Below are positions 27,353 through 47,040 of a DNA stretch of 64,000 nt, in pieces. Origin of the DNA: an uncultured bacterium (GTDB taxonomy: Bacteria; Omnitrophota; Gorgyraeia; Duberdicusellales; CBEUCJ01); assembly GCA_965541615.1 (NCBI GenBank), contig CBEUCJ010000004.1, forward strand, positions 21,167 through 85,166, given 5' to 3'. A program made the position numbers and the translations under genes. The notes beneath the pieces were generated by a model. That model did not search any database, was not told the origin of the DNA, and worked only from the letters and a program-made list of their open reading frames with translations. The number at the start of each line of letters is the position of its first letter. The first letter of the stretch is position 1.

Positions 27353-28198
27353 ATGAATTGTAAAAAAGAATTAGAAACCTTAAAAAAGTATTTCCAAAAA
27401 GAAAATGAAGTAATATTAGCTTTCCTTTTTGGTTCTCATGCAGAGGAGAGAGCGAGAAGCTTTTCTGATTGGGATATAGGAGTTTATTTTAAGCCAAAAG
27501 AATATTTAGAATTAGTTTCATCTTGTAGATACCCAAAAGAAGAAAAAATCTGGTCTGATTTGGTAGAGATATTAAAAACAGATAATATTGATTTTGTAGT
27601 ATTAAACAGAGCCTCTCCTGATTTAGTTTATAAAGTGTTAAAAGATGGGATCCCTTTAACAATTAAAGATGAAAAATTGTATTATGATCTTTTATGTAAA
27701 GCAAGTTATGAATCAATAGATTGGTGGCAATTTGTAGATGAATACTGGAGAATAAGAGAAAATGCAAAGTCTTTGAGTCCTCAGGCAAAAGCGCAGGTTC
27801 AGAAAAGGCTTATTTTTTTAGAAGAACAATTTCAGGATTTTGAATATTTTAAAAAATTAACTTTTTCTGTTTATTCTACAGATAGAAAGGAACGCAGAAA
27901 TGTAGAAAGATGGATAGAGAATTTGGTAATTTCAGCTATAGATATTGCTCAGATTTTTTTAGCTTCAGATAAAAAAGAGATTCCTCAAACTTACAAAGAG
28001 ATTTTAAAAGTATTCACCACTATTTACCTTAACTTTCCTCCTGAATCTGCTGAGAAATTTTCTGATTTTGTAAAATTGAGAAATATAATTACCCATGAAT
28101 ATTTAGATATTAGATGGCAAAAGATAAAAGATTTTATTGACCAAGGCTATTTTTTATATTCCCAGTTTATAGAAAAAGTAAAAGCTAAATTATTGTAA
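27353..28198 (+). CDS. Fused MntA-like nucleotidyltransferase / HepT-like (DUF86) HEPN protein
   Basis: N-terminal LFGSHAEERARSFSDWDIG (NTase GS…D.D); C-terminal RNIITHEY (Rx4HxY HEPN motif). Confidence 0.65.
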   Translation: MNCKKELETLKKYFQKENEVILAFLFGSHAEERARSFSDWDIGVYFKPKEYLELVSSCRYPKEEKIWSDLVEILKTDNIDFVVLNRASPDLVYKVLKDGIPLTIKDEKLYYDLLCKASYESIDWWQFVDEYWRIRENAKSLSPQAKAQVQKRLIFLEEQFQDFEYFKKLTFSVYSTDRKERRNVERWIENLVISAIDIAQIFLASDKKEIPQTYKEILKVFTTIYLNFPPESAEKFSDFVKLRNIITHEYLDIRWQKIKDFIDQGYFLYSQFIEKVKAKLL

Positions 28199-28248
28199 TA
28201 ACCTGTAATTATATAGCACTCTCTTCAGCGAAGCACAGAAAAGTAATT

Positions 28249-28638
28249 TTGAGAAAGTATGGTATAATAGGAAATGTGAAAGAAGAGCAATTGAAAACAA
28301 AAATCATAGAAATTTTTGACAAATATTTAGGAGAAGAATATATATTATTTCTTTTTGGCTCTTCTTCTAAAAAAACTTCTGATATTACTTCAGATATAGA
28401 TTTGGCAGTTTATTGTGATTATACTATTTCTCCTCTTTTAGTTCTTAAAATAAAAGAAGAACTTGAGCATAAACTACATACTCTAAAGGATATAGATTTG
28501 ATAAACCTCACTGATACCACTATAAATAAAAATTTGTTAGAAAGCATCCTAAGGGAGAGCATTTTATGGAAGAAAGGCAAAAATTATCAAGAACTTTTGA
28601 AAAGTTTGAGAGAGCGTTTAGAAAATTTGAAGAGGTAG
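28249..28638 (+). CDS. Minimal nucleotidyltransferase (MNT) antitoxin-like
   Basis: LFGSSS…SDIDLAV NTase motif. Confidence 0.7.
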   Translation: MRKYGIIGNVKEEQLKTKIIEIFDKYLGEEYILFLFGSSSKKTSDITSDIDLAVYCDYTISPLLVLKIKEELEHKLHTLKDIDLINLTDTTINKNLLESILRESILWKKGKNYQELLKSLRERLENLKR

Positions 28639-28994
28639 TAAGATCACCCTATCTTTTTGAGTTTTTAAATGAAGAATTAATAATTGAAATATCTACTAAG
28701 AGATTTGAATATACTTTTGAAAGCCTATGGAAGACATTGAAAGAATTTTTGAGAGTAGAAGGAGTAATTTGTTCTACACCTTTGCAGTGCTTTAAAGAAG
28801 CTTTTAAAAGAGGACTTATAAAAGAAGAAGATGAGAGTATATTTGCTCAAATGATAGAAAAAAGAAATAGGATAGTTCATATATGTGGACTCGAAGAAGC
28901 AAAAGAGATTTATGAATTTATAAAGAAAGAAGAAGTGTATTCTGCTCTCCAGAATATTTATGAGAAACTAAAGGACACAATAAAATCTTCTTAA
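28566..28994 (+). CDS. HEPN-domain protein (HI0074-like NTase substrate-binding), toxin-like partner of preceding MNT
   Basis: RNRIVH (Rx4H) motif; overlaps MNT gene. Confidence 0.7.
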   Translation: MEERQKLSRTFEKFERAFRKFEEVVRSPYLFEFLNEELIIEISTKRFEYTFESLWKTLKEFLRVEGVICSTPLQCFKEAFKRGLIKEEDESIFAQMIEKRNRIVHICGLEEAKEIYEFIKKEEVYSALQNIYEKLKDTIKSS

Positions 28995-29060: not shown

Positions 29061-29211
29061 AGCTATATTCTGATAAGTAAGATTCTTTTGAGCAGATAAT
29101 TTTGGTATATAGGCTTTTTAACTTTTTAAATATACTATGTGCCTTTACTTTTCTTGACAATAAAAATAAAAGATTAACAAAAAGATGAAGTAATGTATAA
29201 TAATTTAAATA

Positions 29212-30447
29212 ATGAAAAGAAAATTTGTAATTACAGGAATTGGAGTGGTAAGTTCAGTTGGAATTGGAAAAGAAGAATTTTGGAATGCATTAAAAGAAGG
29301 CAGACAAGGAGTAAAAGAAATAGAATATCCTGAGTTAAAAGAATTAAAAGTAAGAAAAGCTTACCAAGTTTCAGATTTAGAACCTGCTAAGTTTTTAGGT
29401 CATAAAGGATTAAGGAATTTAGATAAGCCAACTAAATTACTGCTAATTTCTGCAAAGTTAGCTTTAGAGGATGCAAATTTAGAAATTACAGAAAAAAATA
29501 CAGATTGTGTAGGAGTAGTTACAGGCACAACTTTAGGGAGTATTCCTTCTATAACTGAGTTTAATAAAGAAGTTCTTTTGGAGGGAATAGAATTTTCAAA
29601 CCCTGCACTTTTTCCTAACACAGTAATAAATGCTCCCTCTTCTCAAATTTCTATAAGATTTGGTATTCAAGGGTTTAATACTACCATTTCTACAGGTTTT
29701 ACTTCAAGTTTAGATGCGTTAAAATACGCTTTAGATTTTCTGGAATTAGAAAAAGCTCAACAGATTTTAGTAGGAGCTGTAGAGAGTTTAGATTTTTCTA
29801 TTTACTTTGGATTTTATAAATTGGGGTATTTAGCAGGAATAAGAGGACCTGAGATTATGTGTCCTTTTGATAGAAGAAGAAATGGAGTAATTTTAGGAGA
29901 AGGAGCAGTGAGTTTAATTTTAGAGACAGAATCTGAAGCAAAAAAAAGAAAGGCGAAGATTTATGCTGAGGTCAAAAGTTGTGTCCAATTTTTTGATGGA
30001 TTTAGGTTAGGCAAAATTCATCCTCAAGGAGAAGGTTTAGAAAGAGCTATAAAGAAAGCTGTGGAGATATCAGGATTAGATTTAAAAGATTTTGATTATG
30101 TAAACTGTTCTGCAAACTCCACAAAAGATTTAGATAAGATTGAACTTAATGTTTTAGAAAAAACTTTTGGGAAAAGATTATTAAAAAAAATTCCAATAAC
30201 TTCTATAAAATCTATGATCGGTGAGACTTATTCAGCTTCTGGAGCTTTTCAGATAGCAAGTTGCGTAGGAAGTTTTGTAAAGGGATTTATTCCAAGAACT
30301 TTAAATTATAAAGAAAAAGATCCTCAGCTTCCAGAGGTTAACATAGTAACTGATGATATGATAAAAAGTAAAATAAATAATATTTTAATTTCATGTTTTG
30401 GTCCGGGAGGATACAACTCAGCTTGCGTAATAAGTAGATATTCTTAA
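29212..30447 (+). CDS. Beta-ketoacyl synthase-like protein with all three catalytic residues substituted (CLF/KS-beta-like, Cys>Phe, His>Asn, His>Glu)
   Basis: Thiolase-fold KS sequence, but TGFTSSLDAL where TACSSSL is expected, CSANST where HGTGT is expected, IGETYSASGA where IGHxxGAAG is expected. Confidence 0.75.
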   Translation: MKRKFVITGIGVVSSVGIGKEEFWNALKEGRQGVKEIEYPELKELKVRKAYQVSDLEPAKFLGHKGLRNLDKPTKLLLISAKLALEDANLEITEKNTDCVGVVTGTTLGSIPSITEFNKEVLLEGIEFSNPALFPNTVINAPSSQISIRFGIQGFNTTISTGFTSSLDALKYALDFLELEKAQQILVGAVESLDFSIYFGFYKLGYLAGIRGPEIMCPFDRRRNGVILGEGAVSLILETESEAKKRKAKIYAEVKSCVQFFDGFRLGKIHPQGEGLERAIKKAVEISGLDLKDFDYVNCSANSTKDLDKIELNVLEKTFGKRLLKKIPITSIKSMIGETYSASGAFQIASCVGSFVKGFIPRTLNYKEKDPQLPEVNIVTDDMIKSKINNILISCFGPGGYNSACVISRYS

Positions 30448-30454
30448 AATTCTT

Positions 30455-31189
30455 ATGCAGGAATTTAAAAATAAGGTAGTAATTATTACTGGTGGAACAA
30501 GAGGAATAGGAAAAGAATTAGTAATAAAATTTTCACAACAAGGAGCAGATGTAATTTTTACTTATTTAAAAAATAAGAGTTTGGCAAATAAGATGAAAAA
30601 AGAATTTAAAAATGTTCTACCTATCCAAGCAGATGTAAAAAAATATGAAGATTGCAAAAAAGTAGTTGAGAAGGTTTTAAAAAAGTTTAAAAAAATAGAT
30701 ATTCTTGTAAATAATGCAGGAATAAGAAGAGATAAATCATTATTAATGATGGATTTAGAGGATTGGAGAGAAGTTTTAGATACAAATTTAAATGGTGTTT
30801 TTAATATGTGTAAAGCAAGCATAGTCTGGTTTATGAAGCAGAAGTTTGGTTGTATAATAAATATAAGTTCAGTAAGTGGAATAATGGGGTTAGTAGGACA
30901 AACAAATTACTCAGCTTCTAAAGCTGGAATTATTGGTTTTTCTAAAGCTTTAGCAAAAGAATTAGCCTCTTACAACATAAGAGTAAATGTAGTAGCTCCT
31001 GGGTTTATAGAAACAGATATGACCAAAGATTTAAGAGAAGAGTTTAAGAAAGAAATGGTTAAATTAATTCCTATGAAAAGATTTGGAACTCCTTCTGAAG
31101 TAGCTGAGCTATGTTTATTTTTAGCAAGTAATAAAGCAAGTTATATTACAGGAGAAATTATAAAAGTAGATGGAGGTTTGTGTATATAA
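30455..31189 (+). CDS. fabG: 3-oxoacyl-ACP reductase (SDR)
   Basis: TGGTRGIG, NNAG, YxxxK (YSASKAG) motifs. Confidence 0.85.
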   Translation: MQEFKNKVVIITGGTRGIGKELVIKFSQQGADVIFTYLKNKSLANKMKKEFKNVLPIQADVKKYEDCKKVVEKVLKKFKKIDILVNNAGIRRDKSLLMMDLEDWREVLDTNLNGVFNMCKASIVWFMKQKFGCIINISSVSGIMGLVGQTNYSASKAGIIGFSKALAKELASYNIRVNVVAPGFIETDMTKDLREEFKKEMVKLIPMKRFGTPSEVAELCLFLASNKASYITGEIIKVDGGLCI

Positions 31190-31204
31190 AAAAGGAGAAA
31201 AGTC

Positions 31205-31462
31205 GTGGGTAAAAGAAAAGAAGTAGGAGATATTAAAAAAGAGATAAAAAAAGTTGTTTCAGAGATTGTAGAGGTTCCAGAATCAGAATTAAAAGAAGAT
31301 GCAGATTTCCAGGATTTGGGTGTTGATTCTATGATGGCTTTGGAGATTGTAGCTACTATTGAGAAAAAATTTAAGATAGTCATTCCTGAAGAGGAAATTC
31401 CAAAGGCTACTAACTTAAAAAAGATTTACGAGTTAGTAGAAAGACTTAAAAAGAAAAAATAA
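31205..31462 (+). CDS. Acyl carrier protein
   Basis: LGVDSM phosphopantetheine site; GTG start with AAAGGAG RBS. Confidence 0.8.
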   Translation: MGKRKEVGDIKKEIKKVVSEIVEVPESELKEDADFQDLGVDSMMALEIVATIEKKFKIVIPEEEIPKATNLKKIYELVERLKKKK

Positions 31463-31912
31463 GTGCAAGATATTAAAATAAAAAAAATTCTTCCTCACAG
31501 GTATCCTTTCATTTTTATAGACAAAGTAGAAGAGGTAGATTTAAAGAATAAAAAAATAATTTGCAAAAAGAAATTCAGCATCAGCGAGTATTTTTTCAAG
31601 GGTCATTTTCCACAGAATCCTGTCGCCCCAGGAGTTTTATTGATAGAAAGTATGGCTCAAAGTGCAATAATTTTATATGCAAGTATTTATCCTGAAATAG
31701 CTAAATTAAAACCAGATTATTATTTAGGAAAAGTATCTGCAAAGTTTTTGAATCCAGTTAAGATAGGAGATGTGCTAAAAATAGAAGTAAAAATGATCAA
31801 GTCTTTAAAAAATGCAGGTATTGTAGAAGCTGAATGTTTTGTTGAAGACAAAAAAGTATGTGAAGGTGTGTTAAGTTTTGGAGTAAAAGTAAATTCAACA
31901 TCAACTACTTAG
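31463..31912 (+). CDS. 3-hydroxyacyl-ACP dehydratase, FabZ-like hotdog
   Basis: LPHRYPFIFIDKV and HFP…PVAPGVL catalytic His motif; abuts ACP stop. Confidence 0.8.
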   Translation: MQDIKIKKILPHRYPFIFIDKVEEVDLKNKKIICKKKFSISEYFFKGHFPQNPVAPGVLLIESMAQSAIILYASIYPEIAKLKPDYYLGKVSAKFLNPVKIGDVLKIEVKMIKSLKNAGIVEAECFVEDKKVCEGVLSFGVKVNSTSTT

Positions 31913-31930
31913 CTAATTCTAATTTTTATT

Positions 31931-33151
31931 ATGAAAAGAAGGGTAGTAATTACAGGGTTAGGAGTAGTGAGTCCTATAGGGATTGGCAAAGAGGAATTCT
32001 GGAAAAATTTAATAAAAGGTAAAAGTGGAGTAAGAAAAATAACTCTGTTTGATACTTCTAAATTTAAAAGACATTATGCAGCAGAAGTTAAAAATTTTAA
32101 CCCTTCTCAATTCATAGATAAAAGAAAACTTAAATTTTTAGGGCGTTCATCTCAACTTTCAATCGTAGCTACAATTTTAGCTTTAAAAGATGCTAATATA
32201 AATTTCAAAGATGTAAATGGAGTATTAATAGGAACTACAATGGCTGAACATCAACAAGTAGAAGTGCTTTTGAAAGAGTGGTTTAAAGGAGATAAAAAAA
32301 TAGAGAAAAATAGAGTAGTTTTATCTCCTGCAAGTAATTTGAGTGCGAATACAGCTCAAAGTTTAAAAATAAAAGGTTTAAATATGCTTATTCCCACAGC
32401 TTGCTCAGCTGGAAATTATACTATTAGTTATGGATTTGATTTAATTAAAAAAGGTGATGCTGATTGCATAATAGTAGGAGGAGCTGATGCTTTGTCATTC
32501 ATTGCTTTTTCAGGATTTCAAAGATTATACGCAATGGCTCCTAAAGTCTGTCAGCCTTTTGATAAGAATAGAAAAGGTATGATATTAGGAGAAGGAGCAG
32601 GAGTTTTGGTTTTAGAATCTTTAGAGAAAGCTTTAAAAAGGAAAGCAAAAATTTATGCAGAAATTTTAGGGTATGGGTTATCTTGTGATGCTTATCATAT
32701 GACGATCCCTCATTATAAAGGAATAGAAAAAGCAATAAAAAAAGCTTTAGATTCAGCAAATGTTAGTCCTGAGGACATAGATTACATATGTGCCCATGGA
32801 ACAGGAACTATTCAAAATGATAAAGCTGAATGCAAAGCTATAAAAAATGTGTTTGGCAGAAGATATAAAAAGATTCCTGTGAGTTCTATAAAATCTATGA
32901 TTGGACATTGTATGGGAGCAGCATCTAGTATAGAAGCAGTAGCTTGTTGTTTGGCAATTGAAAATGGAGTTATCCCCCCTACCATCAATTTCCAAACACC
33001 TGATCCTGAATGTGATATAGATTGCGTTCCTAACAAATCAAGAAAAGCAAATTTAAGAATAGTCCTAAACAATGGATTTGCTTTTGGTGGAAATAATTGT
33101 TGTGTGGTTTTAGGAAAAGTCAATGATCAAACTTATAAATTGCATCATTAA
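31931..33151 (+). CDS. Beta-ketoacyl-ACP synthase (active KS; Cys-His-His intact)
   Basis: IPTACSAG (Cys), CAHGTGT (His), KSMIGHCMGAAS (His). Confidence 0.85.
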   Translation: MKRRVVITGLGVVSPIGIGKEEFWKNLIKGKSGVRKITLFDTSKFKRHYAAEVKNFNPSQFIDKRKLKFLGRSSQLSIVATILALKDANINFKDVNGVLIGTTMAEHQQVEVLLKEWFKGDKKIEKNRVVLSPASNLSANTAQSLKIKGLNMLIPTACSAGNYTISYGFDLIKKGDADCIIVGGADALSFIAFSGFQRLYAMAPKVCQPFDKNRKGMILGEGAGVLVLESLEKALKRKAKIYAEILGYGLSCDAYHMTIPHYKGIEKAIKKALDSANVSPEDIDYICAHGTGTIQNDKAECKAIKNVFGRRYKKIPVSSIKSMIGHCMGAASSIEAVACCLAIENGVIPPTINFQTPDPECDIDCVPNKSRKANLRIVLNNGFAFGGNNCCVVLGKVNDQTYKLHH

Positions 33152-33235
33152 GAAAAATAAAAAATAAGTAGTTCCTCGCATTTTTTAAAAATTTTTACTT
33201 TTAAATTTCTTTAAAAAACTTTTTAAATGAATACA

Positions 33236-33258
33236 GAAATCAGAGCTGTGATATAATA
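33236..33258 (+). promoter_or_regulatory. Candidate extended -10 promoter (TGaTATAAT) upstream of reductase gene
   Basis: TGnTATAAT seen about 10 nt upstream of ATG 33268; weak -35. Confidence 0.25.
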
Positions 33259-33267
33259 ATATAAAAA

Positions 33268-34380
33268 ATGGAAGAAAATAAAGTAGCCCTCCTTACAGGT
33301 TCTACAGGATTTTTAGGAAGTTTTTTAGCAAAAGAATTACTTGATAAAAATTATTTTCTTTATCTATTGGCTCGCCCTAAGAAAAATAAATCTGCATTTG
33401 AAAGAGTGATAGAAAGTTTGAAATTTGTTTATGAAGATGAATGGACTGATAAATTGTTATCTCGAATAAAAGTAATTTCAGGTGATATTACACAAGATAA
33501 TCTTGGGATTCATTCTAAAAAAGAAATAGAGGAACTCATTAAAGAGGTAGAGATTATATTTCATTCTGCTGCTTTAGCTGAGTTAAGGGTTCCTTTAGAG
33601 AAAATTAGAAAAATAAATGTGGAGGGAACAAGAAATATATTAAAGTTCGCTTTAAAATGTAAAGAAAAAGGGAGATTAAAAAAGGTAAATCATATAAGTA
33701 CAGCTTATGTAGTAGGTAAAAAAATAACTAATTTTAGTGAAGATATGTTAGATTTGGGTCAAGAATTTAATAATACATATGAGCAATCCAAATTTGAAGC
33801 AGAGCTTTTAATAAATGAATTTAGAGAAAAAGGTTTAAAGATTTCTATTTTTAGACCAAGTATGATAATGGGAGATTCCAAAACTGGAAAGACAAATAAA
33901 TTTAAAATATTTTATCAACTATTACATGCTTTTTCTTTAGAAATCTATAAAAAATTTCCAGCAAATTTAAAATCTACACAGAATCTAATAAATATAGATA
34001 CTGTAGCAAAAGCTGTAAGTATTTTAGGCGAAATAGAAGAAAATTCCACTTATCATATTGTGAGTCCAGAAGATACTTCTGTTGAATTTTTTATGAAATT
34101 AGTTTCAGATTATTTTGGATTTAAATTGCCAGAATTTATTCCTGTGGAAGAATTTAATTTTGACGAATGGAGTCCTGTTCAAAAAGCGTTGGCTGAGCCT
34201 TACATTCCTTATTTTAATTTTAAAACAAAATTTTTATCACAGAAAACTCAGCAGGCTCTTAAAAAATATAATTTTATTTATCCTAAGATTGATAAGAATA
34301 ATTTTTTTAATATTTTTGAATACTGGCATAAAAAAAGTTTCGTCAGGAAAAGCTTACATGGACCTCTTGCAATTAATTAG
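33268..34380 (+). CDS. Stand-alone thioester reductase-domain protein (fatty acyl-ACP/CoA reductase-like SDR)
   Basis: TGSTGFLGSFL (TGxTGFLG R-domain motif), YEQSK catalytic YxxxK. Confidence 0.7.
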   Translation: MEENKVALLTGSTGFLGSFLAKELLDKNYFLYLLARPKKNKSAFERVIESLKFVYEDEWTDKLLSRIKVISGDITQDNLGIHSKKEIEELIKEVEIIFHSAALAELRVPLEKIRKINVEGTRNILKFALKCKEKGRLKKVNHISTAYVVGKKITNFSEDMLDLGQEFNNTYEQSKFEAELLINEFREKGLKISIFRPSMIMGDSKTGKTNKFKIFYQLLHAFSLEIYKKFPANLKSTQNLINIDTVAKAVSILGEIEENSTYHIVSPEDTSVEFFMKLVSDYFGFKLPEFIPVEEFNFDEWSPVQKALAEPYIPYFNFKTKFLSQKTQQALKKYNFIYPKIDKNNFFNIFEYWHKKSFVRKSLHGPLAIN

Positions 34381-34941
34381 GTATCGTAGAACCATAAGAA
34401 AATATAAAGATAAATCACTTTCAAAAAAAATAATAAAAAGGATTATTATAGCTGGAAAATGGGCTCCTTCTCCTCATAATTCTCAACCATGGTTATTTGT
34501 GATAATAAGGAATGATAAGCTTAAGGAGGAACTTTTAAATTTGTTAAATAGATCTTCAAAAGAATTTTTGGTAGGCGTTAGAGTATTATTCAAGAATACT
34601 ATACAAATAATAAAAGAAGCTCCACTTATAATTTTAGTATACAATACAAAATCTCTCTCTCAAAAAGTTAAAAAATTAGGGAACCTTATTTTTCTAATGC
34701 TTATATTTCAGAAATACAAGGAATATCTTCTGCCATACAAAATATGTATTTGATGGCTACTTCTTTAGGCATAGGTATGGCTTGGTTGATGTTCCCATTG
34801 TTGGTTAAGGGAAAGATCAATAGATTACTTAAGATAAAAAAATATGAATTAGTTGCAATTTTAACATTAGGTTATCCTGCTGAAAGAGGAAAACGTTTAA
34901 AAAGGAAATCTTTATCTGAAATAGTAAAATTTATAGAATGA
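34358..34941 (+). pseudogene. Nitroreductase-family gene interrupted by a -1 frameshift in an A6 run near 34670-34676
   Basis: N-terminal part (RRTIRKY…PSPHNSQPW) and C-terminal part (AIQNMYLMATSLGIGMAW) are in different frames; one extra A restores …VKKIREPYFSNAY…. Confidence 0.6.
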
Positions 34942-34955
34942 GAAAAATAGAACTC

Positions 34956-35150
34956 TATGCAAGAAAGCACGATGCAATAATAAATAATAAATTGAAATGA
35001 AGATTAGAAGTTTAGTTGATGAATGTTATTTAGCAGAGACAGAATTGAAGGGTTCTTGATTGTTGAAAGAATGATAAGCTAGGAGGATAGTGGCACTTCT
35101 TTTGAAAGAGATGGATGTAAGGTTTATTGTAGAAGATTTATTAATCGTGT
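34956..35150 (+). pseudogene. Decayed ~190-nt duplicate of the 5' end (including ATG) of the CrtI-like gene at 36613
   Basis: By-eye alignment to 36612-36775 about 75-85% identical; frame contains stops (MQESTMQ*). Confidence 0.6.
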
Positions 35151-35170
35151 AAGACAAAAATAATTTGCTT

Positions 35171-36460
35171 ATGGAATTTGATTATATTATTGTAGGAGCT
35201 GGTTTAAGCGGATTAAATTTAGCAAAAGAGTTAGTAAATAGAAAAAAGAAGGTTCTAATATTAGAGAAGGGACAATTCTTAAATAGAGTAGGTAGAATTT
35301 TTTACGCAGCAGCTTTTTATGATAAATGTGCTCTGGCAAAAAGTAAAGAAGGAGTTCTTATTTATAGAGTCTTTGGTGTAGGAGGAACTAGTATAGTAAG
35401 TTGTGCCAATGCTGTAGAGCCCTCTCAGGATATAAAAGAAAAGTTTAAAAAGTTTGGTATAGAGTTTGAAAAAGAGATAAAGGAAGTGAAGAGAGAATAC
35501 CAAGTAAGTGTTAAAAATTTACCGGTAGGAAAAGTTTCTTTAAAGATCATGGAGATTGCTAACAAATTAGGATATGAAACGAAAATTATGCCTAAATTCG
35601 GTGCTTCAGGAGAGTGCAGATTATGTGGGAGATGTGTTTTGGGATGTAGATGGGGGGTAAAGTGGACAGCGTTAAAATTTTTAGAGGATATAGATGAGAA
35701 GAATTTTAAAATAGTTACTAATTTCAATGTTAAAAAGATAATTATCTCCAATGGGAAAGCAAAGGGGGTGGAAGGAAGCTATTTAAAGATAAGAAAAAAG
35801 AAGTTTTATGCTGATAGAATAATTCTAGCTGCAGGAGGAATAGGAACACCTGTTATATTGCAAAATTCAGGAATTGAGGCAGGTAATAACTTATTTGTGG
35901 ATTACTTTAATGTAACTTATGGAATTCATCCTTCGCTTACTCAGAAAAAGGAGCCATGTATGTCTGTGATATGTGATAAGTTCCATCAAAATGAAGGATT
36001 TATATTATCTCCTTTTGTGGATAATTTTGTAGGTTTTCTTTCGTCTGTAAAAAAGAAATATTTTTTTAGAGTTTTTAAACTGAATCAAATTTTAGGAATT
36101 ATGACTAAGATTAAGGATGAAGAAAATGGTAAAGTTTTTAAAAATGGAGTAATAAAAAAGGAGCCTACTCAAAGAGATTTAGAAAAGTTGGAAAAGGGCA
36201 GTAAAATTGCTAAAGAAATTTTGATTAAATGTGGAGTAATTCCTCATAGTATAATTGTAACCAAACCCCGTGGTGCTCATCCTGGAGGAACTGCAAGAAT
36301 AGGTGAAGTAGTTAACAATAAATTGGAGACACAAATAAAAAATTTATTTGTATGTGACGCAAGTGTTTTGCCAACATCTTTAGGGATTCCCCCAATGCTA
36401 ACATTAATTGCTTTAGGAAAATGGTTTGTGAAAAATGTTTTAATAGAGGGAGTTAAATGA
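35171..36460 (+). CDS. GMC-family FAD-dependent oxidoreductase (short form)
   Basis: DYIIVGAGLSG N-terminal FAD motif; C-terminal GAHPGGTARIG…CDASVLP GMC signature. Confidence 0.65.
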   Translation: MEFDYIIVGAGLSGLNLAKELVNRKKKVLILEKGQFLNRVGRIFYAAAFYDKCALAKSKEGVLIYRVFGVGGTSIVSCANAVEPSQDIKEKFKKFGIEFEKEIKEVKREYQVSVKNLPVGKVSLKIMEIANKLGYETKIMPKFGASGECRLCGRCVLGCRWGVKWTALKFLEDIDEKNFKIVTNFNVKKIIISNGKAKGVEGSYLKIRKKKFYADRIILAAGGIGTPVILQNSGIEAGNNLFVDYFNVTYGIHPSLTQKKEPCMSVICDKFHQNEGFILSPFVDNFVGFLSSVKKKYFFRVFKLNQILGIMTKIKDEENGKVFKNGVIKKEPTQRDLEKLEKGSKIAKEILIKCGVIPHSIIVTKPRGAHPGGTARIGEVVNNKLETQIKNLFVCDASVLPTSLGIPPMLTLIALGKWFVKNVLIEGVK

Positions 36461-36612
36461 GTTTTCTAAAAACACTAATATTTAATGTGGAAGACTTTAA
36501 GAAAGTATAAAATAGACAAGTTTCAAAATTAGATATTTTGCGAAAAAGAATGTTAGAAAAGTAAAATAATAAAAAAAGTGGTGAGGTAAAATTTGTATAT
36601 TATAAAAAACAC

Positions 36613-38052
36613 ATGCAAAAGAAATACGATGTAGTAATAATTGGAGCAGGAATTGGAGGTTTGGTTTGTGGATGCTATTTGGCAAAGGCAGGATTGAAGG
36701 TTTTGATTGTTGAGAAAAATGATAAGCCAGGAGGATATTGTACTTCTTTTGAAAGAGATGGGTATAGATTTGATGTGGGAGTGCATTATTTGGGAGGTAT
36801 AAAGAGAGGAACGTTAGGAAGAATTTTAGAAGAATTAGAAGTAAAGGATAATATAAAGTTTCGCCAGTTTGATCCTACAGATAAGATAGTTATGCCTGAG
36901 AATATAACTTATATAAGAGCGAACCCTTATGATACTATCAAAGAATTTAAAAAAAGTTTTCCTAATGAGAGAAAGAATATTGAAAGATTTTTTAAATTTG
37001 TGATGCAGAGGAATTTTTTAGAGATTTATAAAAAAATAAGAAAATTAACTTTTAAACAGATTTTAGATGCATTTTTCAACGATTATAAACTGAAAGGAGC
37101 ATTGAATGTATTATTAGGAAACATTGGAGTTCATGCAAGTATAGCTCCAGCTTTAAGTGGAGTGATTTTGTATAGAGAGTTTATTCTTGATCCAGGCTAT
37201 TATCCTGAAGGAGGGATGCAAAGTTTTTCTGATGCACTGGCTAAGAAATTTAAAGAGTACGGAGGAGAAATAATGTTTTCTGAAGAAGTGAAAAGGATTT
37301 TAGTGAAAAAGAAAAAAGTAGATAAAATTCTATTAAAGGGAAATAAGGAGATCTGTGGTAAAATAGTAATTTCTAATAATGATCCAAGACAAACCTTCTG
37401 TAGATTAATAAATATAAAGACTAAAGAATCTTATATTGTAAAGAAATTGCAATTAAGCCCTTCTATTTTTGGAATATATTTAGGAATAAATTTCAACCGA
37501 AAGAATGAGGTAAAAACATATCCCTGTGTGTGGATTTCTAGGATTTATGATTTAAATACCTCCTTTGTTCCTTCTATAGAAAGAATTGTAAAAGGTAAGT
37601 TTCTTTTATCAATGTTTACATTTTTCCCTATTTTACAAACCAAAGTTTCTATTGAAATATTTACATTAGTTCCTTTTGTTTCACATAGTTTTTGGAAGAA
37701 TCCACCAATGAGATTAGTAGAAGAGTTGATAAAAGCTGCCCAAAGAGAATTCGGTTTTAAAAAAAACAACTTAGAGATAAAGGAAATAGCTACTCCTGTA
37801 ACTTTTGAAAAATTCACTTCAAATACTCAAGGAGTAGCTTTTGGTTGGAAATCTACATTAAACCAAATAAAACTTTCTACATTTCCTTTAGAGACTTCTA
37901 TTAGAGGACTTTTTATAGCAAGTCAATGGGGGACTGTGGGGAGTGGACAAGGAGGGATTCCTAAAGTAGCTTTTTGTGGAAGAAAAACAGCTTATTTGGT
38001 ACTAAGTAAGTTAAAGAAAGAATGGCCATATTCTACACATTTGATAATGTAA
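36613..38052 (+). CDS. FAD-dependent oxidoreductase of the phytoene-desaturase (CrtI/CrtD-like) family
   Basis: YDVVIIGAGIGGL…VLIVEKNDKPGGY amine-oxidase/CrtI-type N-terminus. Confidence 0.65.
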   Translation: MQKKYDVVIIGAGIGGLVCGCYLAKAGLKVLIVEKNDKPGGYCTSFERDGYRFDVGVHYLGGIKRGTLGRILEELEVKDNIKFRQFDPTDKIVMPENITYIRANPYDTIKEFKKSFPNERKNIERFFKFVMQRNFLEIYKKIRKLTFKQILDAFFNDYKLKGALNVLLGNIGVHASIAPALSGVILYREFILDPGYYPEGGMQSFSDALAKKFKEYGGEIMFSEEVKRILVKKKKVDKILLKGNKEICGKIVISNNDPRQTFCRLINIKTKESYIVKKLQLSPSIFGIYLGINFNRKNEVKTYPCVWISRIYDLNTSFVPSIERIVKGKFLLSMFTFFPILQTKVSIEIFTLVPFVSHSFWKNPPMRLVEELIKAAQREFGFKKNNLEIKEIATPVTFEKFTSNTQGVAFGWKSTLNQIKLSTFPLETSIRGLFIASQWGTVGSGQGGIPKVAFCGRKTAYLVLSKLKKEWPYSTHLIM

Positions 38053-40206
38053 ATGATGAGTCTAAATTTATTTAGTATTTCTTCTTTTCTAATTTTCATT
38101 TTTAGTATTTCTTTGGGTATTTTTACTTTTTTAAAGAATAGAGAAAGAATAGGAAAAATATGGATTTCTTTTTGTTTTCTTGCTTCTATTTGGGGGTTTG
38201 GGGGATACAAGTTCTCTACGGTTTCTAACTACGACGATGCTTTTTTTTGGTGGCAGGTTGCATATATATGTGTAATTCTCTCTCCTGTGGTGTACACTCA
38301 TTTTGTATTTGTTTTTCTTGAAATAAAGAAGAAGTTTTTTTTGTGTTGTTTTTATATCTTAGCAGGAATATTTTTAGGACTTAATTTTTTTGCTCCTAAA
38401 CTTTTCTTAGGAGATTTAAGGTTCATATTTAATCAATTTTGGTGGCATGATTGGGTTAAGAGAAAAAATGTAGTATGGTTAATTTTTTATTTTTGTTTTT
38501 ACTGGTATCTTTTGGTATATTGCTTTTTTCTATTGATAAAATATTATAAGAGAACTTCTGGTGTAAAAAAGTTTCAGTTAAAATATTTTATATTAGCTTC
38601 AGTTTTTGGGTGGATAGGTCCAATTGTAGATTATCTTCCCGTTTTTCGGATCGATATTTATCCTTATGCTAATTTTTTAACAATTCTTTATCCCTTTCTT
38701 ATTACGTATGCCGTTGTCAAGTATCGTCTTATGGACATTCGCATTACGATTACTCAAACAGGCATTTTTGGTTTAGTTTATGCTTTGATATTGGCTATCC
38801 CTTTTGCAATAACTTTCTGGGGAAGAGGACATTTATATCCTTATTTTGGAGAATTCTGGTGGGTGCCTTCATTTATACTTTTAGCAGTTTTAGCTTCTAC
38901 AGGTCCTTTTATTTATATGTATTTACAAAAGAAAGCAACAGATTTTTTATTAAGAGAAGAGAGGAAGTATCAAGAGGCGCTTTTGGCTTTGGCAAAAGAA
39001 ATGGTGAATGAGAAAGATTTAGATAGATTATTGAGGATTATAGTTTTAAGAGTTTACAGATTAATGAAGTTAAAATTTACAGGAGTCTATTTATGTGAAA
39101 AAGAAGATAGTTTTGCTGTTTTGAAATATAAATGGCCTAAAAAAGAAAATCCATTGCCCCAAAGACTTCACTTACACACATCTTCTCTAATAAAAGCTAT
39201 TAAGGAAAAGAAATCTCCTTTTGGTTTAGATGAAGCAGAAGTCGATAAAGAATCAGAAGGTTTACCTGATTACGGAGCAATAATTCCTTCTTTTATGGAT
39301 GATACCTTAATTGGTTTTTTATTTTTAGGTCCTAAAAAGAAAGGAGATTTTTCGCCAAGAGACTATGAAGTATTTGAGACTTTAAGTTTACAAGCAGCTT
39401 TAGCTATTGAGAATGCTTTATATTTAGAAGAGTACAAAAAGACTCAAGAAGCTTTGTTTCAAGCTGAAAAATTAGCAAATATAGGTGTGATGGCTTCAGG
39501 GATGAGTCATCAGATGAATAACAGATTGCAGGTCATAAGTCTAATAGCAGGAGATATAAAAGATGAGATAAATTTCTTAAAGGAAACCGACCCTGAAACT
39601 CTAAAAACTTTCATTGCTCATGTAAAAGAAAATATGGAAAGATTAGAAGAAGAGATAAAGCATGGAAGAGAAGTGATAAGAGGTCTTTTAGATTATTCAA
39701 AGAAAAGACAGATAAGGTTTATGCTTGTAAATTTTGAAAAGGACATCTTGCAAGATGCTTTAAAACTTTTGTATACCAAGCAAAAAATAGAAGATGCAGA
39801 ACTCAACTTTGAGATTCAAAAAGATTTACCTTCTATTTGGGCAGAACCTACTCAGATGGCAGAAGTCGTGTTTAACTTATTAGACAACGCTTACGAAGCT
39901 GTAATTATGAAAAAGAATCATCTAAATGATTCAAATTTTAAAGGGAGAATAACATTGAAAGCCTACAGTATAAATGAATTTTTTAGAATAGATGTAGAGG
40001 ACAATGGAATAGGAATTAAAGAAGAAGATAAAAAGAAAATTTTTATCCCCTTTTTCACAACAAAATCTTCTACAAAATCAGGTTTTGGATTAGGTATGTA
40101 TGTAGTAAAGAGGATAATAGAATCTCATAAAGGTAAAATCTGGTTTGAATCTAAATATTTAGAAGGAACCAAATTCCATATAGAACTCCCCTTACCTCAA
40201 TTTTAA
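38053..40206 (+). CDS. Sensor histidine kinase with large multi-TM N-terminal sensor, no adjacent response regulator
   Basis: About 10 TM helices, then HisKA (SHQMNNRL) and HATPase_c (DNGIGI…GFGLGM) motifs. Confidence 0.75.
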   Translation: MMSLNLFSISSFLIFIFSISLGIFTFLKNRERIGKIWISFCFLASIWGFGGYKFSTVSNYDDAFFWWQVAYICVILSPVVYTHFVFVFLEIKKKFFLCCFYILAGIFLGLNFFAPKLFLGDLRFIFNQFWWHDWVKRKNVVWLIFYFCFYWYLLVYCFFLLIKYYKRTSGVKKFQLKYFILASVFGWIGPIVDYLPVFRIDIYPYANFLTILYPFLITYAVVKYRLMDIRITITQTGIFGLVYALILAIPFAITFWGRGHLYPYFGEFWWVPSFILLAVLASTGPFIYMYLQKKATDFLLREERKYQEALLALAKEMVNEKDLDRLLRIIVLRVYRLMKLKFTGVYLCEKEDSFAVLKYKWPKKENPLPQRLHLHTSSLIKAIKEKKSPFGLDEAEVDKESEGLPDYGAIIPSFMDDTLIGFLFLGPKKKGDFSPRDYEVFETLSLQAALAIENALYLEEYKKTQEALFQAEKLANIGVMASGMSHQMNNRLQVISLIAGDIKDEINFLKETDPETLKTFIAHVKENMERLEEEIKHGREVIRGLLDYSKKRQIRFMLVNFEKDILQDALKLLYTKQKIEDAELNFEIQKDLPSIWAEPTQMAEVVFNLLDNAYEAVIMKKNHLNDSNFKGRITLKAYSINEFFRIDVEDNGIGIKEEDKKKIFIPFFTTKSSTKSGFGLGMYVVKRIIESHKGKIWFESKYLEGTKFHIELPLPQF

Positions 40207-40470: not shown

Positions 40471-40737
40471 TTAAGAAAAAAAGCCAATCACATTTTTGGA
40501 GAGGTTAAAGTATTAGTTTTTGGCTCAGTTGTAAAAGGAGACTATCTTTCAAATAGGGATATAGACATTTTAATCATAACTGAAAATTTGCCTCAAGAAT
40601 TTTTTGAGCAAGTTAAATTAAAACAAAAATTATTAGAAGGTTTAGAAGAGAATCCTTTCCAGATACATCTTGCTGCTCCTCAAATGTATCAAAGATGGTA
40701 TAAGAATTTTATAAAAGATAATTATTTAGAAGTTTAA
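40471..40737 (+). pseudogene. N-terminally truncated nucleotidyltransferase (MNT) paralogue of the gene at 41139; no start codon in frame
   Basis: …VLVFGSVVKGDY…DIDILIITENLP…FQIHLAAP…, about 55% aa identity to 41139 product; frame opens right after a TAA. Confidence 0.5.
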
Positions 40738-40747
40738 GAGGTGTCAA

Positions 40748-41142
40748 ATGGACATTGGATTCTTGAAAGAGAGAGCAAATGAATTTTTTGAAGAAGCGCA
40801 AGAATTATTAAAGAAAAAGAAGTATAATCTTTCAGTTTTCAATTTAGAGCAAGCAATTCAATTATGGATAAAATACTTGATTGGCAAGAAAATAGGAGAT
40901 TGGCCTAAGACGCATTTTTTTCAGAATTAATTCCTCAATTAGCTCAGGTTTATGAGGAAGAAAAGATTTTAGAATTTTATAAAGAAAATGAACTATTTTT
41001 TGATAGTTTAGAAGATGCTCATTTTACTTCTCGGTATTTTCCAAAAAAATTCACTGAAAATGTTATATTAAAACTTTTTGAATATTCTAAAAAATTTTTT
41101 AAATTGATTAAAGAGACTATTAATGAAGATTTTTCCCTATGA
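40748..41142 (+). pseudogene. HEPN-domain gene with -1 frameshift in a T7 run (about 40912-40918)
   Basis: Two consecutive ORF pieces; T8 would give …KTHFFSELIPQLAQV… continuing to HFTSRYFP HEPN motif. Confidence 0.55.
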
Positions 41143-41495
41143 AGAAAAGTCTGGTCGATATAATTTTACCTATACATAAAAAAAAGGAGATGTACTTTAG
41201 GAATTATAAGTCTTATTGTCAAGAAATTAAAAGAATAGCAAAATGTTCTTTGAAAGAAGTAAGAGTGTTAGTGTTTGGTTCAGTGGTAAAAGATAAACAT
41301 ACTCCAAGTAGTGATATCGATGTTTTAATAATTTCTAATAACCTTCCTGAAGAATTTGAAGAGAGAGAAAAGATCAAGACAAATATTAAGTCAAAAATAG
41401 ACCCCTTTTCTCCATTTCAGCTCCATTTAGCCACACCTAAGGAATTTAAAGAATGGTATGAAAACTTTTTGAAAGGTAATTATCTAGAAATATAA
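41139..41495 (+). CDS. Minimal nucleotidyltransferase (MNT)
   Basis: VLVFGSVVKDKHTPSSDIDVLII NTase motif. Confidence 0.7.
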   Translation: MKKSLVDIILPIHKKKEMYFRNYKSYCQEIKRIAKCSLKEVRVLVFGSVVKDKHTPSSDIDVLIISNNLPEEFEEREKIKTNIKSKIDPFSPFQLHLATPKEFKEWYENFLKGNYLEI

Positions 41496-43914: not shown

Positions 43915-43917
43915 TTT

Positions 43918-44800: not shown

Positions 44801-44821
44801 TTTTGAAGTTTTTTGAAAAAA

Positions 44822-45673: not shown

Positions 45674-45687
45674 GAGGGGGGTAGAGT

Positions 45688-47034: not shown

Positions 47035-47040
47035 AGAGAG

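Follow-up and report, generated by a model that had tools for sequence, protein, structure and literature searches.

The window analysed, a 64-kb stretch of DNA from an uncultured Omnitrophota-like bacterium, contains a real ten-gene operon that adds a reductase, three flavoenzymes and a membrane-bound sensor kinase to a fatty-acid-synthase core. The nine genes that the earlier note had placed at 29212–38052 are all found there on the forward strand with strong family matches, but the operon does not end at 38052 as it had supposed, since a tenth gene begins at the next nucleotide.

29174–29201, forward: best promoter-like site of the region, TTAACA-16-TATAAT (11/12), a candidate, in the 217-nt gap 5' of the first gene
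29212–30447, forward: dead ketosynthase, chain-length-factor-like, of the amxFabFmut type, with the ketosynthase fold (PF00109/PF02801)
30455–31189, forward: FabG-type 3-oxoacyl-ACP reductase (TIGR01830, 318.7 bits, cut-off 297.75)
31205–31462, forward: dedicated acyl carrier protein, amxACP-like, with the phosphopantetheine Ser in DSM
31463–31912, forward: FabZ-type dehydratase bearing the tunnel signature of amxFabZ, in which Ile (Ile69 of amxFabZ) takes the place of the Gly of canonical FabZ at catalytic His+21
31931–33151, forward: active ketosynthase of the amxFabF2 type, Cys-His-Lys-His intact
33268–34380, forward: stand-alone thioester reductase, SDR NAD_binding_4 (Pfam E-value 2.4e-62), with TGSTGFLG and YxxxK
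34358–34941, forward: nitroreductase-family flavoprotein, interrupted where an A6 run near 34690 carries a −1 frameshift
35165–36460, forward: short GMC-family FAD oxidoreductase, 431 aa, by family match
36613–38052, forward: CrtI-family flavoprotein, homologous to the 'phytoene dehydrogenase' of anammox Cluster I (kuste3607 type)
36790–38800, no strand, approximate boundaries: hypervariable block relative to the closest relative, covering the CrtI-like protein after its first ~60 residues and the membrane sensor domain of the kinase
38053–40206, forward: 7TM-GAF histidine kinase, 717 aa, its start adjoining the CrtI stop codon

As the total of promoter-like sites in the region does not exceed the expectation from shuffling, the site at 29174–29201 is a candidate only. 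The GC content of the cluster is in line with that of the surrounding genome. FabD, FabH and FabI are absent from the cluster, as had been noted before; none of them, nor a B12 radical-SAM protein, was found among the roughly 60 scanned ORFs of the window. Neither a phosphopantetheinyl transferase nor an enoyl reductase is encoded here.

In the first ketosynthase, Phe-Ser-Glu stands where the Cys-His-His triad would be and the Lys is retained, which bears out its description as a fully dead partner, and all 87 orthologues examined are dead. Its best match in the PDB is chain C of 9s5h (4e-90, 306 bits; 118 bits for ActB). It is 40% identical to the Brocadiaceae amxFabFmut and retains the tunnel residues Phe135 and Val139 of that type. 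The active ketosynthase matches chain B of the same entry, amxFabF2, best (9.5e-141, 472 bits), ahead of Iga11 (6kxd, 370 bits) and FabF (339 bits). By these scores it groups with amxFabF2 and Iga11 before FabF, and the firm grouping with housekeeping FabF that the earlier note would have taken as a refutation is not seen. It is 52.5% identical to the Brocadiaceae amxFabF2 and, with 431.5 bits, falls short of the FabF equivalog cut-off of 493.75. The best match of the pair is thus the solved amxFabF2/amxFabFmut heterodimer. As a KS/CLF pair this heterodimer is functional and decarboxylates malonyl-ACP; it was cross-linked completely by a C8 probe, more slowly and incompletely by a C6 probe and poorly by a C16 probe, and the Val139 position was likened to a residue of the human mitochondrial ketosynthase that limits the binding of longer substrates (bioRxiv 10.64898/2026.05.19.726425). 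At the level of homology, the dead ketosynthase is shown to be a chain-length-factor-like partner of the active one, the two acting together with the amxACP-like carrier, the FabG reductase and the amxFabZ-type dehydratase.

The ACP scores under every AcpP cut-off; its three best PDB matches are all anammox ACPs (7qv0_D, 7auf_A, 9s5i_E), and it is 46% identical to the Brocadiaceae amxACP. The dehydratase is 40% identical to the Brocadiaceae amxFabZ, and the His+21 position is occupied by Ile in 57 of 70 members of its family and by Gly in none. The Gly-to-Ile tunnel signature of amxFabZ has been linked to the enzyme's favouring chains no longer than C8 (PMC10139942). Homology likewise shows that 29212–33151 encodes a type II synthase core that is self-contained and of the same kind as anammox 'Cluster I'. 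Judged from their sequences, its five genes correspond, outside anammox bacteria, to the "ladderane" fatty-acid-synthase cluster of the latter.

The thioester reductase (370 aa) has the MxaA reductase domain (4u7w, 115.6 bits) as its best PDB match, and scores 174.8 bits against TIGR01746, under the cut-off of 213.35. The NAD_binding_4 SDR fold and the TGxxGxxG and YxxxK motifs are common to this protein, the MxaA domain and the R domains of carboxylic acid reductases. Its gene lies directly 3' of the synthase genes, as with terminal acyl-thioester reductases, but unlike terminal R domains the protein is free-standing, with no carrier or adenylation domain fused to it. The nitroreductase gene reported earlier is present, but its reading frame is broken by the frameshift near 34690; an intact orthologue of 201 aa exists in locus L004, and that of locus L001 is also frameshifted, independently. 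The GMC enzyme likely starts at the ATG at 35171. The CrtI-like protein is 31% identical to its Brocadiaceae homologue over the full length (232 bits), whereas it matches solved CrtI/CrtD with 65 bits and at the FAD end only.

The core is conserved in 339 species-representative genomes that encode the dead ketosynthase, mostly of Omnitrophota and Nitrospirota. Co-occurrence was counted in 44 loci with at least 9.5 kb of downstream sequence. FabZ is present in 43 of these, FabG in 40, the second ketosynthase in 38, the ACP in 37 and the kinase in 34; the CrtI-like gene follows with 23, the thioester reductase with 19, a third ketosynthase with 14, and the GMC enzyme and the nitroreductase with 8 each. 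The thioester reductase and the third ketosynthase are nearly exclusive, being found together in one locus only. The nitroreductase is confined to loci that also hold the thioester reductase, and wherever the GMC enzyme occurs, the CrtI-like gene and the thioester reductase occur too (8/8 loci). In two sister loci that have neither thioester reductase nor third ketosynthase (L027 and L068), the same slot is taken by a non-homologous acyl-ACP reductase, of the type of cyanobacterial AAR and the PigE N-terminal domain. Release enzymes differ across loci, being a thioester reductase, an AAR-type reductase or a third ketosynthase, and a reductase is co-conserved, counting the 19 loci and the two with the substitute. 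No recurrent transporter or acyltransferase was found near related clusters. One MAG has clusters on two scaffolds, and another locus has a tandem duplicate of the core.

The kinase consists of at least seven transmembrane helices (residues 1–291, HisKA_7TM) followed by a GAF domain and a catalytic part with complete motifs, comprising an H-box (H486) and an ATPase domain (N608/N612, DxGxG 650–654, GxGxG 677–681). Its start adjoins or overlaps the previous gene in the window and in L003. The 34 loci that carry it downstream of the cluster span two phyla, and it lies on either side in 29 of the 38 loci with both flanks (~76%). By these gene arrangements it is the most conserved accessory gene, and is predicted to be co-transcribed. 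No response regulator was found near the cluster in the window, and a single-domain regulator adjoins in only 16 of 40 related loci.

Compared with the core, the tailoring enzymes and the membrane sensor domain of the kinase diverge much faster. Between the window and L001, identity is 75–89% in the core and mostly 64–83% in the upstream flanking genes (PilZ, 48%), compared with 41% for the thioester reductase, 35% for the N-terminal part of the nitroreductase and 49% for the CrtI-like protein; in the kinase, it is 40–60% over residues 1–240 and 73–100% over residues 270–717. Across the hypervariable block, the boundaries of which were read from 30-residue windows, identity is 16–60%, against 73–100% in the flanking kinase core and 75–89% in the synthase core. 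Another 36 locus pairs show this trend, as do sliding windows over six pairs. Similarity of the sensor domain does not clearly track the type of accessory gene across loci, and weak constraint alone, without co-evolution with a ligand, can give faster divergence of the membrane domain and tailoring enzymes.

Sequence comparison places anammox Cluster I (antiSMASH 'ladderane' type) as the closest known system, rather than the aryl-polyene systems to which the cluster had been likened. In Kuenenia (kuste3603–3608), Cluster I comprises amxACP, amxFabZ, amxFabF2, amxFabFmut, a phytoene-dehydrogenase homologue and a B12 radical-SAM protein, and structures are available (PDB 9s5h/9s5i, 7qv0, 7auf). 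The two clusters have in common an active and a dead ketosynthase, with the His-to-Glu replacement and the Phe/Val tunnel residues, an amxACP-like carrier, the Gly-to-Ile signature of FabZ, and an adjoining CrtI-family flavoprotein that is far nearer the anammox one than real CrtI. They differ in gene order, in the absence of the B12 radical-SAM protein and the inclusion of FabG here, in the substitute for the catalytic Cys of the dead ketosynthase (Phe or Tyr here, Val or Thr in anammox), and in the host, which is not an anammox bacterium. The thioester reductase, the nitroreductase, the GMC enzyme and the 7TM histidine kinase are additions. The dead ketosynthase is also far nearer amxFabFmut than any solved PKS chain-length factor. 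The ishigamide (Iga11/Iga12) and aryl-polyene (ApeO/ApeC) systems likewise use a KS/CLF heterodimer with discrete KR, DH and ACP and no enoyl reductase, but the starter-unit ligase, thioesterase, exporters and lipid-anchoring enzymes of those systems are missing here, and release is reductive.

It is tentatively proposed, with a probability of about 40%, that the operon encodes a short-chain (~C6–C8) KS/CLF synthase with reductive release, the product of which is possibly read by the kinase. By CHARACTERISED anammox enzymes, the heterodimer would prime itself via decarboxylation of malonyl-ACP, malonyl loading being assumed from a FabD encoded elsewhere, and the core would elongate only to ~C6–C8. 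This limit is expected because the narrowing residues, Phe/Val in the dead ketosynthase and Ile in FabZ, are conserved; the C6–C8 preference itself was measured on the anammox proteins, in assays of cross-linking and dehydration, and not on the present set. The cluster has no enoyl reductase, so the chain would either be an enoyl or polyenoyl thioester or be saturated, whether by a host enzyme or by one of two flavoproteins, the CrtI-like one and the nitroreductase. Domain family and co-occurrence suggest that the thioester reductase releases the chain from the ACP as an aldehyde or alcohol, and that the GMC, nitroreductase and CrtI-like flavoproteins, the last occurring more widely than the other two, may adjust the oxidation state or unsaturation of the product. 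No exporter, acyltransferase or glycosyltransferase accompanies the cluster, which makes a small free lipid the probable product. The interpretation in the earlier note is supported in part: the elongation module with a reductive off-loading enzyme and flavin oxidoreductases is borne out, but the long-chain product is not supported, the two tunnel determinants tied by experiment to C6–C8 in the anammox enzymes being conserved here, and nothing points to the thermophile or ether lipids that it had raised, the relatives being Omnitrophota and Nitrospirota MAGs.

In the most speculative step, the co-transcribed 7TM-GAF kinase would sense the product, or a membrane change caused by it. The operon would then be a unit of lipid-signal synthase and receptor, with a constant core and diversifying parts that set specificity, namely the tailoring enzymes and the sensor domain. 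CqsA/CqsS and RpfF/RpfC are pairs of a lipid-signal synthase and a membrane histidine kinase, and agr is a hypervariable cassette. The analogy with these systems, one of arrangement and not of sequence, lies in a small-lipid gene set beside a kinase with a purely membrane-embedded sensor, and in a variable stretch covering a product-defining enzyme and the kinase sensor, the kinase core being conserved. Unlike in these three systems, no cognate regulator adjoins in the window, nor does anything point to secretion or autoinduction. An alcohol-making reductase beside an alcohol-oxidising GMC enzyme seems redundant, which counts against the proposal. The frameshifted nitroreductases of the window and L001 were also counted against it, as was LipB, which adjoins the cluster in 18 of 80 loci and would imply a different use of the C8 chain.

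It is rather unlikely that the operon instead serves a membrane-lipid pathway, in which an unusual fatty alcohol, aldehyde or unsaturated chain enters the membrane, for example in ether or anaerobically unsaturated lipids, and a DesK-like membrane-state kinase tunes the operon. A core kept in hundreds of species of two phyla fits a role in physiology better than a niche function, the GC content of the cluster is in line with its surroundings, the anammox homologue is thought to make membrane lipids, and the kinase sensor is wholly intramembrane. However, no recurring acyltransferase, PlsX/Y/C or ether-lipid gene lies near the clusters, the tunnel determinants argue for chains of at most C8, too short for bilayer lipids, and the accessory enzymes are highly variable and swapped among close relatives, which is unusual for a core membrane pathway.

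The C8 limit indicated by both tunnel signatures also fits a dedicated supply of octanoyl-ACP to LipB, the reductase and flavoenzymes forming a side branch. Mitochondrial-type short-chain FAS feeding LipB likewise has a predicted C8-limited ketosynthase tunnel, and the Val139 position has been compared with the human mitochondrial residue (bioRxiv 10.64898/2026.05.19.726425). In the 18 loci mentioned above, including that of Ca. Velamenicoccus archaeovorus, a bona fide LipB (TIGR00214, 139 bits against a cut-off of 83.55) is encoded, together with a free-standing lipoyl-domain carrier protein, directly 5' of the dead ketosynthase, on the same strand. This adjacency is seen in loci of Omnitrophota only and could reflect synteny by descent, and no gene for LipB, LipA or a lipoyl-domain protein was found in the window. 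A saturated octanoyl chain needs the enoyl reductase that is absent here, and the third ketosynthase, the kinase, and the reductases and flavoenzymes, which have no role in lipoylation, are left unexplained, so that lipoylation is improbable as the main function.

A pathway to a polyene pigment or antioxidant, resembling aryl-polyene or highly reducing type II PKS systems as the earlier note had suggested, is doubtful to a slightly greater degree. A KS/CLF with KR and DH but no enoyl reductase is a polyene-forming layout, Iga11, the ishigamide polyene ketosynthase, ranks second among solved relatives of the active ketosynthase, MxaA, which releases a polyene chain, is the solved protein closest to the thioester reductase, and the ApeI/ApeP Pfam models also match FabZ proteins of the family. 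Yet the hallmark genes are absent: beyond the adenylation and export genes already remarked on, here an adenylating starter enzyme and a LolA-like or MMPL exporter, there is no second ACP, thioesterase, acyltransferase or glycosyltransferase. Narrow tunnels speak against long conjugated chains, and the hosts are anaerobes of groundwater and sediment.

That the cluster is the housekeeping fatty-acid synthase of the organism is very unlikely. FabG and FabZ pass some NCBIfam equivalog cut-offs, no other fab genes occur among the ~60 ORFs scanned, and the core is very common across the phylum, but the scores of the active ketosynthase and ACP below the FabF and AcpP cut-offs set it apart, as the earlier note had held. 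Housekeeping FAS has neither an obligatory dead ketosynthase partner nor a FabZ tunnel blocked by Ile, the cluster lacks FabD, FabH and FabI, canonical FabF and FabZ exist beside the Cluster I copies in anammox bacteria, and related genomes can hold the cluster on two scaffolds or the core in tandem. Ladderane synthesis, suggested by the antiSMASH class name, is extremely unlikely: anammox Cluster I shares five of its six gene families with this cluster, but the B12 radical-SAM protein is absent from the scanned window ORFs and has weak, non-adjacent matches (24–63 bits) in 4 of 80 related loci, the relatives are Omnitrophota and Nitrospirota, not Brocadiales, and ladderanes are known from anammox bacteria only.

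A short-chain synthase with reductive release is the preferred reading, and the operon offers a route to learning what this enigmatic synthase module makes.

Ten successive genes on the + strand occupy positions 29212-40206, with spacings of 0 to 223 nt and one overlapping pair. The nine genes recognized in the earlier note were all identified with Pfam and NCBIfam models. The boundary that it placed at 38052 has to be moved, however, as a tenth gene that it did not list, encoding a histidine kinase, follows immediately.

Genes of the cluster: position in the window, strand, product and basis of the assignment
29212-30447, +, dead protein of ketosynthase fold (KS1); Pfam, NCBIfam
30455-31189, +, FabG; TIGR01830, 318.7 bits, above the cut-off
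31205-31462, +, ACP; Pfam, NCBIfam
31463-31912, +, FabZ; Pfam, NCBIfam
31931-33151, +, second, active ketosynthase (KS2); Pfam, NCBIfam
33268-34380, +, stand-alone NAD_binding_4 thioester reductase; Pfam, NCBIfam
34358-34941, +, nitroreductase-family protein, frameshifted; Pfam, NCBIfam
35165-36460, +, GMC oxidoreductase, 431 aa; Pfam, NCBIfam
36613-38052, +, CrtI-family flavoprotein (CrtI-like protein); Pfam, NCBIfam
38053-40206, +, histidine kinase, 717 aa, with HisKA_7TM membrane, GAF and ATPase domains; Pfam, NCBIfam

The window has about 30% G+C and a positive GC skew along its entire length, and the + strand holds nearly all its genes. The top promoter-like site of the region is directly upstream of the first cluster gene; the numbers of promoter-like and terminator-like sites in the region do not exceed shuffle expectation. 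No convincing terminator was found in a scan inside the ten-gene set, and Rfam and tRNA scans returned no element within or adjoining the cluster. The nitroreductase reading frame is continuous only after adding back one base in an A6 run near 34690. The nitroreductase gene of the closest relative, locus L001 (GCA_053996315.1; gene at 16572-17155), is frameshifted in another A-run, about 20 codons beyond the site in the window, so that the two events are independent. They reflect either errors of assembly in homopolymers or a decay of the gene in parallel within the lineage.

The other ~60 scanned ORFs of the window are mostly housekeeping genes. They also include the sole large gene of the - strand (5769-8843), which encodes a CARDB protein of 1024 aa with three CARDB repeats, and, adjoining it, a restriction-modification pair (4055-5687) made up of a BsaWI-like restriction endonuclease and a DNA methyltransferase. 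Nucleotidyltransferase/HEPN toxin-antitoxin genes are found on both flanks of the cluster (27353-28994 and 40588-41495, with truncated copies at 40588-40930), and similar modules interrupt or adjoin the cluster in related loci L012, L044, L051, L053 and L070. A Fur regulator (41581-42069) lies beside a run of dinitrogenase FeMo-cofactor-binding-domain proteins, DUF5320 and ferredoxin-fused ParA/MinD-like ATPases (43116-48755), which is typical of anaerobes and has no relation to the cluster.

In the alignment of the two ketosynthases, Phe, Ser and Glu of KS1 face the catalytic Cys, His and His of KS2, while the Lys is retained in KS1, which bears out the dead active site noticed previously. 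By sequence comparison, the closest known system is Cluster I of anammox bacteria (kuste3603-3608). Against all PDB sequences, the best match of KS2 was chain B of entry 9s5h (9.5e-141, 472 bits), ahead of Iga11 (370 bits), a polyene ketosynthase from the ishigamide pathway, and of FabF from Bacillus (339 bits); that of KS1 was chain C of the same entry (4e-90, 306 bits; runner-up 211 bits). Chains B and C are amxFabF2 and amxFabFmut, the active and dead ketosynthases of Brocadia fulgida, and only their heterodimer decarboxylates malonyl-ACP (bioRxiv 10.64898/2026.05.19.726425). The top three PDB matches of the cluster ACP are anammox ACPs (57.1, 52.1 and 50.0 bits; next 40.8), a ranking that indicates an amxACP-type carrier.

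Locus L086, a Brocadiaceae Cluster I, has the gene order ACP, FabZ, FabF2, FabFmut, phytoene-dehydrogenase homologue and B12 radical-SAM; identity to the window proteins is 40% for KS1, 52.5% for KS2, 46% for ACP and 40% for FabZ. In this sequence (CP064969, L086 8724-9949), the annotation splits amxFabF2 into a 340-aa product and a 61-aa ORF, and the gene is apparently frameshifted. The CrtI-like protein aligns over its full length with the product of the L086 gene adjoining amxFabFmut (31% identity across 484 residues, 232 bits), and with solved CrtI/CrtD at the FAD-binding end only (65 bits). The window cluster therefore has, in common with Cluster I, an active ketosynthase adjacent to a triad-less one with Glu in place of the second His, the carrier, an adjacent kuste3607-type phytoene-dehydrogenase homologue, and a bulky Ile in the acyl tunnel of FabZ. 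It is firmly predicted to be a specialised, self-priming type II synthase of the Cluster I kind, composed of a ketosynthase and a chain-length factor (KS/CLF), with a reductive release enzyme.

The residue 21 positions after the catalytic His of FabZ corresponds to Ile69 of amxFabZ; it is Ile in the window, in amxFabZ of L086 and in most of the family (57 of 70), and is taken to be Gly in E. coli FabZ. Ile69 of amxFabZ, compared to Gly in canonical FabZ, blocks chains longer than about C6-C8 (PMC10139942). KS1 retains Phe135 and Val139, which in amxFabFmut line the tunnel close to C8; cross-linking of the anammox heterodimer was complete with a C8 probe, slower and incomplete with C6, and poor with C16 (bioRxiv 10.64898/2026.05.19.726425). 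Rather than the long-chain product proposed in the earlier note, the conserved tunnel residues and, by analogy, the anammox experiments point to a chain of about C6-C8. The cluster contains no gene for an enoyl reductase. As the sole accessory enzyme common with anammox bacteria, the CrtI-like protein is a candidate reductase or desaturase. A carotenoid pathway was rejected on two grounds: a phytoene synthase gene was found neither in the cluster nor among the scanned ORFs of the window, and phytoene is not desaturated by the anammox homologue of the CrtI-like protein (PMC4790861).

Relatives of KS1 number in the thousands. Identity is 51-77% for the best 120, of which the named ones are mostly from Omnitrophota or Nitrospirota. 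When one genome per GTDB species was scanned, 339 genomes had a KS1 relative; the best 80 of these are Omnitrophota and Nitrospirota/Thermodesulfovibrionia. The Omnitrophota among these 80 include Ca. Velamenicoccus archaeovorus (complete genome) and many bins labelled 'uncultured Planctomycetia'. LigA of the window is 55-61% identical to that of Omnitrophota loci with common downstream gene order. Judged by these relatives, the host most likely belongs to Omnitrophota. A census of variants was made by scoring the ORFs of all fetched loci against the window proteins. KS1 orthologues are dead in 87/87 cases, with Glu at the second His and Tyr or Phe at the Cys position in all except one, and the catalytic set of the partner ketosynthase is intact in 61/61.

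Gene counts were taken over the 44 loci with at least 9.5 kb of downstream sequence. The core is nearly constant (FabZ in 43, FabG in 40, active ketosynthase in 38, ACP in 37), and the accessory genes are the 7TM kinase (34), the CrtI-like protein (23), the thioester reductase (19), and the GMC oxidoreductase and nitroreductase (8 each), the last two restricted to loci containing the thioester reductase. A third intact ketosynthase of ~434 aa is present in 14/44 loci and accompanies the thioester reductase in one locus only. Two loci devoid of both have in the thioester reductase slot a non-homologous acyl-ACP reductase of the cyanobacterial AAR/PigE N-terminal type, so that reductive release was apparently recruited at least twice. 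The complete window-type set is present in L001, L004 and six more loci. Six Omnitrophota loci (L057, L066, L067, L075, L078, L081) have only KS1, FabG and FabZ, without active ketosynthase or ACP nearby, between riboflavin genes and a metallophosphoesterase-LigA block; this block lies at 54255-63360 in the window, ~16 kb downstream of the cluster. Two core sets stand in tandem in L010 (9977-21218), and MAG Prado152 has clusters on two separate scaffolds (L022, L079).

The product of the tenth gene has the features of a two-component sensor kinase (Pfam E-values 1.5e-24 for HATPase_c and 2.3e-12 for HisKA_7TM). The H-box His (H486) and the N, G1, F and G2 boxes (N608/N612, D650-G652-G654, F664/F667, G677-G679-G681) are present and kept in 33 orthologues. 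Its membrane part consists of at least seven helices without sizeable external loop. Translational coupling of the kinase gene with the gene before it is seen in the window and in one Nitrospirota locus (L003). The kinase gene is found on either side of the cluster in 29 of the 38 loci with both flanks, and overall co-occurrence is 76-77%. No response regulator was found adjacent to the cluster in the window; a single-domain one is near the cluster in 16/40 related loci, where a second kinase is also a recurrent neighbour. Nitrospirota loci have another kinase, of PAS/GAF type, after the 7TM kinase, and in L003 (18122-21176) next comes a response regulator with an HD/HD_5 output domain, possibly of HD-GYP type, which hints at a cyclic-di-GMP output.

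Identity between the window and L001 varies along the locus. The upstream flanking genes are mostly 64-83% identical (PilZ 48%), the synthase core (KS1, FabG, ACP, FabZ, KS2) 75-89%, and the GMC enzyme 83%. Identity is 41% for the thioester reductase, 35% for the N-terminal part of the nitroreductase, 49% for the CrtI-like protein, and 55% for kinase residues 1-300 vs 89% for the remainder of the kinase. In 30-residue windows, the CrtI-like protein is 83-96% identical for its first 60 residues, then 16-50%, and the kinase rises from 40-60% to 73-100% near residue 250-270, so that the drop and the rise delimit a single contiguous divergent block, roughly 36790-38800. The same ordering was observed in 36 further locus pairs with active ketosynthases 72-82% identical: tailoring enzymes and sensor domain diverge most, then the kinase core, then the synthase core. 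Sharp identity steps occur in six windowed pairs, Nitrospirota pairs included. The similarity of kinase sensors follows the type of release enzyme in a weak trend that is confounded by phylogeny. Weak constraint could also give rise to this divergence pattern.

The probability that the kinase reads a small lipid product of the cluster is put at about one in three. This role is favoured by the constancy of the kinase, the membrane-only sensor, the absence of export and lipid-assembly genes, and the hypervariability that the sensor and the tailoring enzymes have in common. Against it count weak constraint as a possible cause of the divergence and the absence of a regulator next to the cluster in the window. 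Genes for transporters, acyltransferases or glycosyltransferases do not recur near the clusters in the 80 related loci. A wider proposal, which is rather doubtful, is that these Omnitrophota and Nitrospirota loci form a hitherto unrecognized family of lipid-signalling units. The Cluster I-type KS/CLF mini-synthase would make a short fatty aldehyde or alcohol, detected by the co-transcribed 7TM kinase, and strain specificity would be set by an agr-like hypervariable cassette comprising the tailoring flavoenzyme or reductase and the sensor domain.

A role in membrane lipids, with the kinase as a DesK-like sensor, would also account for a membrane-only sensor domain; the lack of lipid-assembly genes and the fact that the sensor and the tailoring enzymes are both hypervariable argue for the small lipid instead. 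Another rival is the supply of C8 chains for lipoylation. In 18/80 loci (L004, L011, L015, L019-L024, L027, L030, L036, L046, L047, L056, L068, L074, L077), genuine LipB and a stand-alone lipoyl-domain protein are encoded directly upstream of KS1 on the same strand, at 0.2-2.5 kb. As the tunnel signatures of the synthase are of C8 type, LipB at its side suggests a connection with lipoylation, but the gene content of the window lends this no support, as neither LipB nor a lipoyl-domain gene was found there.

The likeness to aryl-polyene or CLF-type systems seen in the earlier note would make the product a pigment. The absence of adenylation and export genes that it reported holds: no aryl-polyene starter ligase, thioesterase, LolA-like or MMPL exporter, or acyl- or glycosyltransferase was detected with Pfam among the genes scanned (21152-48755), and no aryl-polyene accessory gene is recurrent across the 80 related loci. 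The closest system, however, is Cluster I and not an aryl-polyene one. In CLFs of aromatic type II PKSs, the defining residue is Gln at the active-site Cys position; this position is Phe in the window and Tyr or Phe in the family, and Pfam found no cyclase domain in the cluster genes, so that such a pathway was rejected. A housekeeping fatty acid synthase is firmly rejected, as KS2 scores below the FabF cut-off (TIGR03150, 431.5 bits vs 493.75) and the ACP below that of AcpP (TIGR00517, 40.6 vs 70.45), and as a dead partner and a blocked FabZ tunnel are foreign to housekeeping enzymes. As the earlier note stated, FabD, FabH and FabI are outside the cluster, and none was found among the ~60 scanned window ORFs either. 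Ladderane synthesis, for which the synthase module would speak, was rejected for the lack of a B12 radical-SAM gene: no kuste3608-type cobalamin radical-SAM was found among the scanned window ORFs, the product of the sole radical-SAM gene there (23917-24987) lacks a B12-binding domain and carries an HhH domain, and the L086 enzyme used as query matched nothing in the window and only weakly, away from the cluster, in four related loci.

Clusters of this kind were already known, as antiSMASH 'ladderane' clusters have been reported in non-anammox MAGs, Omnitrophota among them, by genome-mining papers, and partial synteny with Deltaproteobacteria was noted for other anammox lipid clusters (Rattray et al.). 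In the structural papers of 2023 and 2026, the amxFabF heterodimer is regarded as specific to anammox bacteria, and so are amxACP and amxFabZ. In the literature found on the cluster, there was no description of the residue-level identity of the module beyond anammox bacteria, of the reductive-release variants, of the near-obligate 7TM kinase with hypervariable sensor, or of the LipB association; a search on Omnitrophota fatty-acid synthesis gave nothing usable. The kinase pairing, the hypervariability of sensor and tailoring enzymes, and the LipB adjacency suggest signalling or a dedicated C8 supply, functions for which no proposal concerning 'ladderane-type' clusters of non-anammox MAGs was found in the literature searched for these clusters and enzymes.

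How ladderane lipids are made has long been a problem, and anammox bacteria are genetically intractable. Hundreds of Omnitrophota and Nitrospirota species have the Cluster I module, including its tunnel signatures and CrtI-like partner, but no radical-SAM gene with it. This contradicts the anammox specificity stated in the structural papers, and narrows the ladderane-specific chemistry to the absent B12 radical-SAM enzyme. The compact radical-SAM-free operons would allow the intrinsic product of the module to be determined by heterologous expression. If the lipid-signalling proposal is true, the synthase module of the ladderane cluster, besides not being specific to anammox bacteria, would have been recruited from this older short-chain system, the B12 radical-SAM step being the only part special to ladderanes.
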